Positions 10,298-27,046 of a DNA stretch of 30,077 nt are shown here, piece after piece. Each line of letters begins with the position of its first letter. Position 1 is the first letter of the stretch. The notes under the pieces are model-generated. The model searched no databases. It was not told the DNA's origin and worked only from the letters and a program-made list of their open reading frames with translations. A program made the translations under genes and the position numbers. Source of the DNA: Candidatus Peregrinibacteria bacterium (GTDB taxonomy: Bacteria; Patescibacteriota; Gracilibacteria; UM-FILTER-43-11); the NCBI GenBank assembly GCA_016927155.1, contig JAFGNE010000047.1, positions 1-30,077 of the forward strand. Direction: 5' to 3'.

Positions 10298-11578
10298 ATG
10301 CCTTTCATCGCCGACCTTCACATCCATTCAAAATATTCCCGCGCGTGCAGCAAAAACCTTGACCTGCCGCACATTTGGGCGTGGTGCCAGCTTAAGGGGA
10401 TTGATTTGGTGTCCACTGCGGACTTCACTTATCCGGCCTGGTTTAAAGAAATCCATGAAAAACTCGAGGAAACCGCGCCGGGGATTTACGGGCTAAAAAA
10501 AGAATTCCAAAAAGAGGCGGCGGATGTGTATATCCCCGAAAAATGCCAACGCCCCGCCCATTTTATTTTGAGCACGGAAATCAGCCTGATTTACAAGAAG
10601 GGCGAAAAGACCCGAAAAGTGCACCATGTCATCCTCGCGCCGGACGTGAAAACCGTCGCCAAAATCAATGTCGAGCTCGATAAGCGCGGTAATATCAAGT
10701 CGGACGGGCGGCCTATCCTGGGGCTGGACAGCAAAGAGCTTTTGAAGCTACTCCTCGACATTGACCCGGACATTGAGCTGATTCCCGCCCACGCGTGGAC
10801 GCCGCATTTCGCGATTTTCGGCTCCGTTTCCGGCTTCGACAGTATGGAGGAATGTTTTGAGGAGCTTTCCGACCATATCCACGCGCTGGAAACCGGGCTC
10901 TCTTCCGACCCCCTGATGAACTGGAGGCTCAGCCAAAATGACAAGTACGTTTTGGTGAGCAATTCAGACGCCCATTCCCTCCCAAAAATGGGACGGGAGG
11001 CCACGGTGTTTGATTGTGAAATGACCTATCCGGCCATCCTGCGCGCTTTGCGCCATGACCATAAACAAATTGCCGGGACGATCGAATTTTATCCTGAAGA
11101 AGGCAAATACCACGCGGACGGGTTAAGGGCGGAAGGGCTTTGCCTGGCGCCTGAAGAAACGAAAAAAATGAAAAATATTTCGCCAAAAACAGGGAAAAAA
11201 ATCACGGTCGGCGTGCTTCACCGCGTTTCCGACCTGGCAGACAGGAAAATGGGCGAAAAGCCGAAAACCGCGCGGCCCTTTTGGCACATCATCCCGCTCA
11301 CGGAAATCCTGGCTGAAATCCTGCAGGTCGGCGGCGTGAGCAAAAAAGTGGATGAACTGTATTCCAAATTGCTTCAGGAGGTCGGCCCGGAATTTTATAT
11401 CCTCAAGGACGCGCCGATCGCGGACATCAGCCGTGTCAACGAAATGGTCGGTGAGGCCATCTGCCGCATGCGCGCCAGCCAAGTGATCATCCAGCCGGGA
11501 TATGACGGGGAATATGGTATAATCCGCCTCTTCAAGCCCGAAGAATTAGTTGGAAAAGACCAAATGAAATTGTTCTGA
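10298..11578 (+). CDS. Endonuclease Q family (PHP-domain) protein
   Basis: ADLHIHSKYS, TADFT, STEIS, PAHAWTP, ETGLSSD, SNSDAHS, FYPEEGKYH and PGYDGEYG motifs. Start moved to ATG 10298 (MPFIAD), which avoids overlap with the divergent DUF1003 gene. Confidence 0.88.
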   Translation: MPFIADLHIHSKYSRACSKNLDLPHIWAWCQLKGIDLVSTADFTYPAWFKEIHEKLEETAPGIYGLKKEFQKEAADVYIPEKCQRPAHFILSTEISLIYKKGEKTRKVHHVILAPDVKTVAKINVELDKRGNIKSDGRPILGLDSKELLKLLLDIDPDIELIPAHAWTPHFAIFGSVSGFDSMEECFEELSDHIHALETGLSSDPLMNWRLSQNDKYVLVSNSDAHSLPKMGREATVFDCEMTYPAILRALRHDHKQIAGTIEFYPEEGKYHADGLRAEGLCLAPEETKKMKNISPKTGKKITVGVLHRVSDLADRKMGEKPKTARPFWHIIPLTEILAEILQVGGVSKKVDELYSKLLQEVGPEFYILKDAPIADISRVNEMVGEAICRMRASQVIIQPGYDGEYGIIRLFKPEELVGKDQMKLF

Positions 11579-13215
11579 TGCTCAATCCATCCCAACAACA
11601 GGCCATTGAAACGGCGGGGGGGCCGCTCCGGATCGTCGCGGGGGCCGGCACCGGCAAAACGCGCACGCTTACGGAACGGATCGCTTATTTGATCGAAACA
11701 GAAAATATCCTGCCGCATCGCATCCTCGCCCTCACCTTTACCAACAAGGCCGCGCATGAGATGGTAGAACGGTTGCGCCAAAAGCGCGAGATCCTGAAAC
11801 AAGTTCAGGATGACAATGCGCTTTTGGCGCCACAGGTCATGACTTTCCATTCGCTCGCCGCCCGCCTTTTGCGGCAGTATTGGGACCCGAATTTCATCAT
11901 CCTCACGGAAAAAGACGGGGGACCTCCCGAAGACGTGAACGCGCTTGACTTTGACGGCCTGCTCACCAAGCTGATTGAGGTATGGGATGAAAAGCCGGAG
12001 GTACTTATGGACTGCCAACAAAAATTCGACCATATTTTAGTGGACGAATACCAGGACGTGAACGCGGCGCAAATCGAAATCGTGCGGCGGCTGGCTGAGC
12101 CTCATCGCAACCTCTGCGTGGTGGGAGACCCTGACCAGACGATTTATTCATGGCGCGGGGCCAAAGCGACCTCAATGACGGAGTTCGCGGAGTTATACCC
12201 GGAAACAAAAACCGTTATCCTGACACAAAATTACCGCAACCCGCCCGCGATCCTGAAAGGCGCGGAAGAGCTTATCCGCCATAATCCGGACCGGATTGAA
12301 AAGCGGCTGGAAGCGGCCAAAACCACGGGACAGCCGATCGCGCTTTGGGAAAACGGGAACGAATGGGAAGGTTACGACACAATTTCCCACATCCTTGAAA
12401 TGCACCTCGGCTCGCACGGCGATATGGTGCTGGCGGACAGTTTGGATGTTGGGCGGCATGGGGGCTTCCGGCCGTTCTCGGACATCGCCATCCTTTACCG
12501 CACGCAGGCCGAAGGCAAAAAAATCGCGGCCCGCCTCGCGGAACGCGGGTACCCCTGCCAAATGTCCGCATCAGAGTCATTTTGGGAAAGGAAGGAGGTG
12601 AAGGAATTTTTGGGTGAATTGGAAAAATTCCGTAGCGGCATATGTCATCCTGAACTCGTTTCAGGATCTGCCGCTGCGCCCCTTTTTTCCTCCTGGTTAC
12701 GCGACCGCATCACTTCTTTCGCCGCGTCCAAGCAATTAAAGGCCGCTCCGGCAAACCACCTGAACCTACTGATCGCGTACGCCATTCCTTTTGACCGGTT
12801 GCCGGTTCAAGAAGCGCTCGCCATTTTCCTCGACGAAACCAAGCTACAGCAGGAGGCGGACAACTTGATTATGGCGGACCGCATCAACCTGCTGACCCTG
12901 CACGCGGCCAAAGGGCTGGAATTTCCGGTTGTCGTCATCATCGGGCTGGAAGAGGAACATATCCCCCATTTAAAACCCACGGACGACCCAGATAATCTGG
13001 CCGAAGAACGCCGGCTTCTTTACGTGGGCATGACGCGCGCCACGGAAGAACTGCATCTTCTGGGTGCTAAAAAAACCGGCAATAAAGAACTCAAGCCGTC
13101 GCGGTTCCTGGCAGAAATCGGTCACGCCAATATGGCAACCGGCCAATTGCCGGAAAAAGCGGCAATCCGACTCAAACGTAAGGCCATCAAGCAGGCGCAG
13201 ATGAAAATGTTTTAA
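11578..13215 (+). CDS. UvrD/Rep/PcrA-like superfamily 1 helicase, compact form
   Basis: AGAGTGKT, LTFTNKAA, TFHS, DEYQD, GDPDQTIYSWRGA, QNYR, TLHAAKGLEF and EERRLLYVGMTRA motifs. TGATG overlap with the upstream EndoQ gene. Confidence 0.92.
   Translation: MLNPSQQQAIETAGGPLRIVAGAGTGKTRTLTERIAYLIETENILPHRILALTFTNKAAHEMVERLRQKREILKQVQDDNALLAPQVMTFHSLAARLLRQYWDPNFIILTEKDGGPPEDVNALDFDGLLTKLIEVWDEKPEVLMDCQQKFDHILVDEYQDVNAAQIEIVRRLAEPHRNLCVVGDPDQTIYSWRGAKATSMTEFAELYPETKTVILTQNYRNPPAILKGAEELIRHNPDRIEKRLEAAKTTGQPIALWENGNEWEGYDTISHILEMHLGSHGDMVLADSLDVGRHGGFRPFSDIAILYRTQAEGKKIAARLAERGYPCQMSASESFWERKEVKEFLGELEKFRSGICHPELVSGSAAAPLFSSWLRDRITSFAASKQLKAAPANHLNLLIAYAIPFDRLPVQEALAIFLDETKLQQEADNLIMADRINLLTLHAAKGLEFPVVVIIGLEEEHIPHLKPTDDPDNLAEERRLLYVGMTRATEELHLLGAKKTGNKELKPSRFLAEIGHANMATGQLPEKAAIRLKRKAIKQAQMKMF
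11775..11830 (+). repeat. Palindromic (REP/RPE-like) element, copy 1, in frame inside the helicase
   Basis: GCGCCAAAAGCGC-GAG-ATCCTGAA-ACAAG-TTCAGGAT-GACAAT-GCGCTTTTGGCGC: perfect 13-bp outer stem and 8-bp inner stem. Confidence 0.85.
12631..12678 (-). repeat. Palindromic (REP/RPE-like) element, copy 2, inverted relative to copy 1, in frame inside the helicase
   Basis: Plus strand CGTAGCGGCA-TATGTC-ATCCTGAA-CTCGT-TTCAGGAT-C-TGCCGCTGCG. Its 27-bp core (12643-12669), reverse-complemented, matches copy 1 (11789-11815) at 26/27. Confidence 0.85.
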
Positions 13216-19740: not shown

Positions 19741-21531
19741 ATGACGTGGAAGGAGGTCATTGACCGCCTCGGCAACCCAAGCGAACAAACGGAAATAAAA
19801 GAATTCAAAGTCGAATTTCCAAAGGAACTCGAAACGCTGGAACGTTCGCGTTTTTTTGAAAAAGTCCGTGAATTCGCCAATGGCTGCATCCGGATTCCCG
19901 AATTCCAGAAGGCCGCGGGCATTGGGGAAAATTTCGGCGAAAGTTTTTTGGAAATGGTCACCAGCAATGATTTTTCCGAAGCGGACAAAAACGACCCTAT
20001 TTATGCCAAACTGCTCGATCTGGCCCGGATCAAGAATGAGATGGTCCGTGATATCGCGCTTGATTACCTGAAACACCGCGGAGACGGATTGGGGCTAAAA
20101 CCGCATGAAACCGTAATTTTGGAATACCTCCTCCAGCTTATTCCCGTAATGGATCGCATGTACATGCGCTGGAGGAAAGAACTTTACCCCGCGGCCCTGG
20201 CCAAAAAACTGACGGACCTCCTGGATTCGGAAACGGAATCGGCTTTTGACCACTTACAGGCACAGGGGCTTTCTGACCCTTACGCCATCGTGCAGGAAGC
20301 GGAAGGCAAACCGATCGCGGTCCCTTATGGCGTCGCTTTCGCCGAGGAAACAGCCGAAGCCGACACCTTATTGGCCGGTCTGGTGATGGCGCTTAACGGA
20401 TTAAAAGAAAAAACAGAAAATCAGGCCGACATCGCAGAAATTGAAACGTATATTTTTTATTTCGCTGCCTTACAAACGGCCTTTAAATGCGAAGAATCCA
20501 AAAAGGAAGGGGACGATTGGCTATCGGTTAAGTTATGGAAAGAGGTGGACAAGGCCTGGCTTAAAACCCAGGGCCGACTCCAGTTGGTCCATTCCATTGA
20601 GGCCGGTTACGGCGGCATCGACCCAACGGAAACCAAAGTGATCCCCGAATTCAAAATCCTGCTTGTGGACGAATCCGCCGGCGGCGAAGCGCTGGAAATT
20701 CTAAAAAAAATGAGGGAAGAAAACATGGAGGTTTTGGCGCCGCTCCTTCCGGAACAGGTAAAAGGCAGGCTGGAAGTGATCCGCCTTTCGCTGGTCGGGC
20801 CTTTTTCCATCGTACTGGCCGGAGGCAATTCACTGGATAATCTTGGCATCGCCCAAATGGGCCCCAATTACGGCGACATCGCTTCTATGGGGGTGAAGTC
20901 GTTTCTTGACGCCGCCTCTTTCGCGGAAACAGACGCTTCGCGCGCGGCTTCAATAGAAGGTGTGCTGGGGATAGAGGCCGCTCAAACCTATTTCCCTTAC
21001 GAAACAAAACACGAAGACTTGCTTTTGGCCGAACTCATCGCCTCGCATGAGATTTCTCATGCCGTGCTTGGAGACCTGGGCACGCTGGATGAAGTGCACG
21101 CCACCTGGATGGGGCTTGTGGCTCTTTTTGAAAGGGAAAAAACGGGCAAGGTGGAGGCGGCAACCGTAAATGTGATCCTGAAAGAACACATCAAATACAG
21201 CATCAAATACCTTTCCGACGCCAGCCATGACGACCGGTATTACATCGAAGGGGCGATCAACACGAAGCTGATGCTCCAAAGCGGGCTTCTGGCGCGGGCT
21301 GACGGTAAATTTTCCCTGGATGAAAAAAATTGGGGACCATTCAAAAAACTTATCGGGGAACATTGGGCGGAAATGGTCCGCCTGCACGCGGCCGGCGGCA
21401 GGGGATTAAAAACTTTCGCGAAAAACCTCCAAAAAGCGGATGACGCCATAAAAGAAGTTGCCCGCCTGGCCGTTGAAGGCGTGCAGGCTTACAACGAAAA
21501 CACCAAAAAGGAGATTCTCGGATCAAAATAA
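19741..21531 (+). CDS. Zincin-like (HExxH) protein resembling CiaB / peptidase M49-like families
   Basis: SHEISH...LDEVHAT zinc-ligand arrangement. WKEVDKAW...LQLVHSIE and AQMGPN...GVKSF blocks recall Campylobacter CiaB (from memory, not searched). Confidence 0.6.
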   Translation: MTWKEVIDRLGNPSEQTEIKEFKVEFPKELETLERSRFFEKVREFANGCIRIPEFQKAAGIGENFGESFLEMVTSNDFSEADKNDPIYAKLLDLARIKNEMVRDIALDYLKHRGDGLGLKPHETVILEYLLQLIPVMDRMYMRWRKELYPAALAKKLTDLLDSETESAFDHLQAQGLSDPYAIVQEAEGKPIAVPYGVAFAEETAEADTLLAGLVMALNGLKEKTENQADIAEIETYIFYFAALQTAFKCEESKKEGDDWLSVKLWKEVDKAWLKTQGRLQLVHSIEAGYGGIDPTETKVIPEFKILLVDESAGGEALEILKKMREENMEVLAPLLPEQVKGRLEVIRLSLVGPFSIVLAGGNSLDNLGIAQMGPNYGDIASMGVKSFLDAASFAETDASRAASIEGVLGIEAAQTYFPYETKHEDLLLAELIASHEISHAVLGDLGTLDEVHATWMGLVALFEREKTGKVEAATVNVILKEHIKYSIKYLSDASHDDRYYIEGAINTKLMLQSGLLARADGKFSLDEKNWGPFKKLIGEHWAEMVRLHAAGGRGLKTFAKNLQKADDAIKEVARLAVEGVQAYNENTKKEILGSK

Positions 21532-26492: not shown

Positions 26493-27046
26493 AAAAATGG
26501 GGTTACTTTATGGGAATCTTCCAAATTTTGCAGAATAAGACGGTACAGGTTTTTTGTCACAGGGTCCTTCAGGCCGGGTTCAAGTTCCACCAACGGCACC
26601 AGTACAAATTGCCTGTTATTCATGTGGCGGTGGGGCACCTGGAGCTCCGGCAAATCGACCACTTCATCGCCATAAAGCAGGATGTCGATGTCGATCCGGC
26701 GGGGTTTCAGCTCTTTTTTATGAGTACGACCCATCGCTTTTTCCACCACTTCACAGGTTTCCAGAAATTCCAAAGGGTTCAAATCCGTTTCGATTTTAAG
26801 CACACGGTTCAGGAACCAGGAATGGCCTTTTTCCGCCGCCGGCTGACCTTCCTGACGGCCGTCGGGCCCGCCCGAACGATCCGAAAATCGTTCGGACCGG
26901 ACGGGGAACCAGGGTTCGGTTTCATAAACCCTGGATGACTGGATAATTTTGATTTTGCCGGTTTCCCCCAGCTTTTTTTCAGCTTCCATAAGGTGTTCAA
27001 GCCTGTCGCCGACGTTGGAACCCAGTGATAAATAAGCCGTGATCAT
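26489..27046 (-). CDS. folK: 6-hydroxymethyl-7,8-dihydropterin pyrophosphokinase with a ~20-aa loop insertion
   Basis: AYLSLGSNVGDR, SRVYETEP, FLNRV, E..MGR, PRRIDIDILLY and PH..M.NRQFVLVPL motifs. Start placed at ATG 27046 (ATGA overlap with the PTPS gene). Confidence 0.93.
   Translation of the reverse strand: MITAYLSLGSNVGDRLEHLMEAEKKLGETGKIKIIQSSRVYETEPWFPVRSERFSDRSGGPDGRQEGQPAAEKGHSWFLNRVLKIETDLNPLEFLETCEVVEKAMGRTHKKELKPRRIDIDILLYGDEVVDLPELQVPHRHMNNRQFVLVPLVELEPGLKDPVTKNLYRLILQNLEDSHKVTPFL
26847..26906. repeat. 60-bp double palindromic insert inside folK
   Basis: CCTT-CCTGACGGCCGTCGGG (26851-26866, perfect core GACGGCCGTC) abuts CCGAACGAT-CCGAAA-ATCGTTCGG (26872-26895). Confidence 0.75.

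Follow-up and report, generated by a model that had tools for sequence, protein, structure and literature searches.

The window analysed here is a stretch of 30,077 nucleotides from contig JAFGNE010000047.1 of a Candidatus Peregrinibacteria bacterium (assembly GCA_016927155.1). It contains the gene of a small helicase (Table 1), whose open reading frame matches Pfam UvrD-helicase (1e-64) and UvrD_C (5e-40) and whose nearest solved structure is PcrA 1pjr (5e-84). An AlphaFold (AF2) model of the protein has a pLDDT of 90.8. Approximately 58 residues of the 1B-domain region, which all orthologs from the same bacterial family have, are absent from this helicase (window 11893-11935, residues ~106-120), and model confidence at the junction is low (pLDDT 70). 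The same gene carries two copies of a short palindromic element, called copy 1 and copy 2 below.

Table 1. Features of the helicase gene and its two palindromic copies (positions in the window)
Feature	Position	Strand or orientation	Description
Host gene	11578-13215	+	Minimised UvrD/PcrA-type SF1 helicase, 545 aa; holds copies 1 and 2
Copy 1	11775-11830	tag on -	Perfect 13-bp arms GCGCCAAAAGCGC/GCGCTTTTGGCGC; encodes REILKQVQDDN
9-bp palindrome	12603-12631	+	GGAATTTTT-N11-AAAAATTCC; conserved coding sequence; abuts copy 2 arm
Copy 2, outermost tier	12621-12690	+	GGAAAAA (12621-12627)/TTTTTCC (12684-12690); DNA fold
Copy 2, 5' outer arm	12631-12640	+	CGTAGCGGCA; pairs with 12669-12678
Copy 2, core	12643-12669	reverse relative to copy 1	26 of 27 bases identical to 11789-11815
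Copy 2, tag	12643-12646	+	TGTC, a CGTC variant; unpaired; 5' end of the element
Copy 2, inner hairpin	12647-12667	+	8-bp stem ATCCTGAA/TTCAGGAT, 5-nt loop CTCGT
Copy 2, stem halves	12647-12654, 12660-12667	+	
Copy 2, loop	12655-12659	+	
Copy 2, 3' outer arm	12669-12678	+	TGCCGCTGCG; one G-T pair; first bases overlap the element tail

An earlier note on this DNA had described copy 2 as an inverted repetition of copy 1 with its own outer stem of 10 bp. Our pattern search agrees. In the window, the 26-nt core pattern matches at 11790-11815 (+) and 12643-12668 (-) only, and zero matches are expected by chance (100 shuffles), which rules out a chance origin of the copy 2 match. The sole difference between the copies is a loop base (A versus G), and the arms of copy 2 are complementary to each other except for one G-T pair, exceed chance by far and differ from those of copy 1. 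Folded as single-stranded DNA, the copy 2 region forms a nested hairpin of three tiers; the 72 nt from 12621 to 12692 reach -18.6 kcal/mol (z = -6.1), and none of 200 shuffles does as well. The outermost tier is host sequence, since its T-run encodes the F-S of a near-invariant FSxW motif. No direct repeats flank copy 2. An independently assembled contig from a public run (X1) covers 11927-12918 without any difference, so that copy 2 is not an artefact of the assembly of this bin. With regard to inversion between the two copies, which the earlier note had proposed to look for, the assembled contigs of one DNA run include a single collinear contig across copy 2 and, among the joints listed, none from this organism, so that they provide no evidence for inversion; those joints carry foreign sequence, from the repeats of other organisms.

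Both copies are read through as protein. The helicase frame reads copy 2 as RSGICHPELVSGSAAA (residues 352-367), as the note had given it, and TGA occurs in three of the six frames of the element, which limits insertion to the three open ones (EILKQVQDDN, CHPELVSGS and VILNLFQDL). Both peptides are absent from six orthologs of the same bacterial family and from 57 metagenomic orthologs. With some 63 orthologous helicases lacking them, the two copies are insertions and not ancestral peptides, and the proposal that one helicase took up the element twice holds. The copy 1 insert lies between motif Ia (TNKAA) and TFH and lengthens the protein by exactly 11 residues; the length of this site does not vary in 54 of the 57 metagenomic orthologs. 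At copy 2 the protein is seven residues longer than most orthologs, and the insert lies in a variable-length loop that follows FWERKE...L, where the reduced 2B region begins. Because this gain is only seven residues and the structure spans 48 nt, either extra events or a misjudged ancestral loop length must be assumed. The note had expected the inserts to map to surface loops. In the predicted structure, both fall in dips of pLDDT (61 for residues 71-80; 72 and 70 within 351-370) with confident helices on either side, placed in the model as expected for tolerated loops.

What, then, is the element? CGTC-tagged REPs are defined by an unpaired CGTC tag followed by an 8-bp stem that opens with A-T; in the CGTC-2 family the loop measures 5 nt, and the unpaired tail is short and in most cases CCA (Di Nocera, De Gregorio & Rocco 2013, BMC Genomics 14:522, PMC3733652). 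The tag is altered to TGTC in many repeats, and TGTC or CCTC are allowed (PMC3733652). Copies 1 and 2 share the tag, stem and loop of this architecture: a TGTC tag, an 8-bp stem opening with A-T and a loop of 5 nt. Their short tail reads CTG (copy 2) or CTC (copy 1), and part of it is taken up by the outer arm. The match of tag, stem and loop to the published definition shows, at the level of sequence architecture, that the element is a member of the CGTC-tagged REPs, of the CGTC-2 type, with a unit of ~28 nt. Further resemblances concern its habits. The copies are dispersed, and head-to-head dimers are common in relatives and in other phyla. In-frame copies also occur in repair genes, notably those of UvrD/REP helicases, and a single gene may hold two; CGTC repeats in UvrD/REP helicases, as well as double insertions in repair genes, were already described in 2013, and a Sulfurovum CGTC-2 insert in the supplement of that paper reads RHSELVSGS (PMC3733652), compared with CHPELVSGS here. 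The differences are a host of Peregrinibacteria type (Patescibacteria), outside the five phyla listed in 2013, a very low copy number, a tail of CTC or CTG instead of CCA (CCA is present in the relative G011 and in Sphingomonadales) and the nesting of a subset of copies inside longer, site-specific hairpins. The earlier note had not linked the element to this published family. The family was recognised by architecture and not by a literature search with the sequence; a full-text literature search for the core sequence and its peptides gave no match.

Other classes of short palindrome share some of these properties. The Rickettsia palindromic elements (RPE) are likewise selfish palindromes that sit in frame in working genes and are read as surface loops, and RPE-4 and RPE-6 are the same as CGTC-4 and CGTC-1; the classical RPE-1, however, measures 100-150 bp against the 28 nt of the present unit and belongs to a different sub-family. 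GTAG REPs and REPINs, mobilised by RAYT (IS200/IS605-like Y1) enzymes, are also short tagged hairpins of single-stranded DNA, often in inverted dimers. We rejected this assignment because the tag is TGTC instead of GTAG and no Y1 transposase gene (PF01797) was found in the 90%-complete genome; the candidate partner, discussed below, is a GIY-YIG nuclease. A MITE, which would have the terminal inverted repeats of a parent IS and a target-site duplication, was likewise rejected, given that the unit is a single 28-nt hairpin, that no direct repeats flank copy 2 and that each copy has inverted arms of its own sequence.

The genome (915 kb in 99 contigs, 90% complete) holds approximately nine copies of the repeat on six contigs, of which five are intragenic. 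In several of them the stem is kept through compensatory changes; stems altered in this way in other copies read ACCCTGAA/TTCAGGGT and ATGCTGA/TCAGCAT. Three of the nine lie in UvrD-like genes (P ~3e-5, calculated post hoc). Elsewhere, more than 120 contigs from many phyla contain the 21-nt core without any change, including Sphingomonadales, Bacteroidota, Treponema, Ignavibacteria, Nitrospirota, several Patescibacteria, a Rickettsia endosymbiont and a Nanoarchaeota bin. Other in-frame copies lie in genes for a class I tRNA synthetase, glutamate synthase, asparagine synthase, HsdM and YjeF_N, every one of them read in one of the three open frames.

Several individual loci deserve description. 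In this genome (G000), a gene for a YjeF_N protein, NAD(P)HX epimerase-like, carries two copies in the same orientation, 165 nt apart (contig C52, 20368-20393 and 20533-20558; L182, 1295-2032); both read GEVLKQVQDDN and lie in loops of variable length. Besides copies 1 and 2 of the helicase, a third copy in a UvrD-like gene coincides with an assembly break between the end of C30 (~20093-20105) and the end of C70 (3098-3125; L184), within an AddA/RecB-like gene (UvrD_C plus PD-(D/E)XK nuclease), and is read as VTLNSFQGL. In the G001 ortholog of that gene (L172), the corresponding linker holds a decayed copy in opposite orientation, which reads SDPESSSGL and has lost its TGA. In relatives (L180, 1917-1975; L149, L169, L172, L173, L177), full repeats are followed by tandem arrays in which a 3' half-site and tag (GTTCAGGATGAC) recur every ~20 nt, separated by spacers of ~8 nt; the arrays may represent a separate binding unit or products of slippage. 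In G011 (L144, L155, L156, L161), a conserved block resembling a sigma-70 promoter (TTAGCA ... TATAAT) lies ~40 nt upstream of several copies of the repeat, and if this block is a promoter, its transcript would have the repeat at the 5' end. This genome also contains another, unrelated family of dispersed repeats, built on inverted GACTATTRSGA pairs, on C1, C17, C34, C38, C44, C55, C89 and C96. Finally, the folK gene has a GC-rich double palindrome (window 26847-26906) that is unrelated in sequence to the repeat, so that in-frame palindromic inserts here come from more than one source.

A conserved stem within a coding region could, in principle, belong to a functional structured RNA, such as an internal attenuator or a processing site in the helicase mRNA, and not to selfish DNA. 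The compensatory changes noted above agree with such a role, as do the many copies located in 3' UTRs or terminators. The exact core also occurs, between unrelated flanks, in a metatranscriptome contig from the same study (RNA run X2, record 12, on window 11790-11814), so that some part of the community transcribes copies of the repeat. A regulatory RNA, however, would hardly be expected in both orientations within one gene and across genes, as is the case here. Moreover, a terminator scan flags neither helicase copy, an Rfam scan of window 11500-13000 returned only chance-level matches at E values up to 10, and the nuclease partner of the related NTS acts on single-stranded DNA, not RNA (PMC11893778). 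We thus regard a function as RNA as very improbable.

It is more probable that the repeat acts as single-stranded DNA. No dedicated transposase is known for CGTC REPs (PMC3733652), but a class of candidate partners has recently appeared. The Ssn proteins, GIY-YIG nucleases of ~95 aa, bind and cut CGTC-type hairpins, only as single-stranded DNA and on one strand, and the NTS/dRS3 sequences have been generalised as Ssn-related motifs (SRM), which typically flank ssn genes (Chenal et al. 2025, Nat Commun 16:2388, PMC11893778). Small GIY-YIG genes are numerous in genomes of this bacterial family. In two sister genera (G022, L180, 1593-1904; G001, L223, 1438-1731 on the minus strand), GIY-YIG genes of 103 and 97 aa have the repeat on both sides with the tags pointing outward, which reproduces the layout of ssn loci: a single-domain gene of ~100 aa between two repeats. 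The two proteins are 55% identical to each other, and their homologs are 60-70% identical across phyla, which would fit the constancy of the repeat across phyla. The repeat itself has the conserved 5' HGTCWY tag of the SRM and the C after the palindrome, but its stem is AT-richer and fails the literal motif: the published degenerate SRM pattern has no match in the window or in the repeat-flanked GIY-YIG loci, the third base of the stem is T, at a point for which the pattern specifies V. Searches of NCBIfam and of PDB sequences with the sister-genome nuclease returned nothing useful.

In the present genome the link to an enzyme is indirect. No small GIY-YIG gene, repeat-flanked or otherwise, and no Y1 (PF01797) or IS110 (PF01548) gene was found in the 90%-complete assembly, and the sole GIY-YIG match is a 780-aa ORF, possibly UvrC. 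The connection therefore rests on the sister genomes. Absence of a nuclease gene is not proven by this result, because the genome is 90% complete and a repeat-flanked gene could vanish at contig breaks. If the analogy with Ssn holds, hairpin and tag together would form the recognition site, only the strand that bears the tag (+ in copy 2, - in copy 1) would be nicked, a few bases to the 5' side of the tag, and Ssn-type nucleases, now absent or unassembled in this genome, would drive or once have driven the spread of the repeat.

It is less clear why both helicase copies are framed by outer arms. The earlier note had taken the combination of a conserved core and site-specific arms as a hint of a mechanism that builds or selects flanking inverted repeats, with the proviso that a lack of outer stems in other copies would speak against it. 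Requiring an outer stem of at least eight matched pairs, with one mismatch allowed, we found arms in nine of 185 copies without a neighbouring copy, where 0.7 are expected from shuffled flank pairs; the remaining 176 (~95%) have no outer stem beyond chance. None of the other intragenic copies (~40) has arms. The proviso thus largely applies, nine armed copies notwithstanding, and of the two halves of the idea, the building of arms as part of insertion is not supported, whereas selection of hairpin targets is favoured. Nesting is concentrated in this bacterial family (8 of 51 copies, compared with 2 of 173 elsewhere; Fisher p = 1.4e-4), and five of the eight nested family copies occupy the loops of ordinary terminators of the A-run/GC-stem/T-run kind that directly follow stop codons. 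This genome also has repeat-free terminators built in that way, with loops of 3-4 nt, and the distance from arm to arm in the nested copies, 28-32 nt, equals one repeat plus such a loop.

Comparisons with sister species bear on the history of these sites. One orthologous terminator (G001, G017) has the repeat in both species with covaried arms, which indicates that arms evolve faster than the core. Two orthologous positions have unrelated terminators without a repeat, and at one the synteny breaks at the repeat; no clean empty site for a terminator-embedded copy emerged among these comparisons. At the position orthologous to L167 1494-1560, G006 (L228, contig C1) has a repeat-free terminator that is itself nested, with outer AAAAAATGCA/TGCATTTTTT and inner GGGTT-AGAA-AACCC, and nested terminators seem to be common in this lineage.

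Because the armed family copies sit mostly in terminator loops, and repeat-free terminators look alike, selection of hairpins as targets is more likely than the building of arms. The arms would then most probably be hairpins already present at the target, the element landing in their exposed loops. Copy 1 fits this reading: once 33 nt are removed, what remains is a 9-bp stem closed by a loop of 3 nt, encoding RQK-A/R-LLA, consistent with insertion into a pre-existing hairpin.

The opposite order of events is that the arms arose during or after insertion, the inner hairpin inducing intramolecular template switching (quasipalindrome correction). One flank would be overwritten with the complement of the other, and the palindrome would grow outward with no change in length. 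Such a process would account for the perfect 13-bp coding arms of copy 1 despite a net gain of exactly 33 nt at a length-invariant site. It would also explain why the codons of the 5' arm (RQK) are close to the consensus of the orthologs (QKK) while those of the 3' arm (ALLA) depart from the common [L/F/H]-P-x-V, although conservation of that motif among orthologs is no more than moderate. The empty site of either copy, a comparison that the earlier note had proposed for the arms, forms no hairpin in orthologs, and arms that pre-existed would demand three stems of at least 9 bp in this 1.6-kb gene, when the density of such stems in the genome is 0.25 per kb. The concentration of nesting in one family, furthermore, is as expected for a trait of host replication or repair. 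Nevertheless, ~95% of copies, including all the other intragenic ones, are without arms, most of the nested copies lie in ordinary terminators, for which no such mechanism has to be assumed, and no intermediate, with imperfect or growing arms, is documented. Taken alone, outgrowth of the arms after insertion seems unlikely to us.

A further possibility is that arms and repeat travelled together, copied as one cassette from a repeat-bearing terminator and replacing host sequence of similar length. Both helicase copies do have the order A-run/stem/repeat/stem/T-run of the terminator-embedded copies in relatives. But the net gains of 33 and 21 nt are far below cassette sizes of 56 and 48-70 nt, the T-run at copy 2 encodes the near-invariant FS of the host motif, and no donor with the same arms exists in the genome. 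Transfer of a whole nested hairpin is thus quite improbable.

Of these possibilities, insertion of the repeat into pre-existing hairpins remains the preferred account of the arms. For the locus overall, we think it highly likely that the element is a CGTC-2 REP that inserted independently at each site; it would be recognised as single-stranded DNA by an Ssn-type nuclease, and the hairpins at its targets would more likely than not have been there beforehand. Copy 2 would have entered separately from copy 1, keeping the frame, in a surface loop of variable length where the reduced 2B region begins, and its peptide is probably tolerated as an additional floppy loop. As to a rule, one may tentatively propose, at rather low confidence, that in this Peregrinibacteria family the repeat prefers the apical single-stranded loops of existing hairpins (terminators and rare coding palindromes), or else that its hairpin seeds palindrome outgrowth by template switching.

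Cases of selfish hairpin DNA translated as a protein loop are known from Rickettsia, Wolbachia and many REP families. The present case is a new host and a new locus for a known family; intragenic copies of that family, some of them in UvrD-type helicases, have already been published. With it, the CGTC-2 repeat is recorded from an ultrasmall Patescibacteria genome, where more than half of the copies lie within genes. The occurrence of the exact repeat beside small GIY-YIG genes in sister genera supports the idea of Ssn-type nucleases as the long-missing partners of CGTC repeats, and its lineage-specific nesting in longer hairpins is a testable clue to how targets are chosen or reshaped. If true, entry into loops or outgrowth of palindromes would give the CGTC/Ssn-type repeats a concrete target rule or a concrete mutational consequence, and might bear on their recurrence in SF1 helicase and repair genes; in this genome three of nine copies lie in UvrD-like genes.
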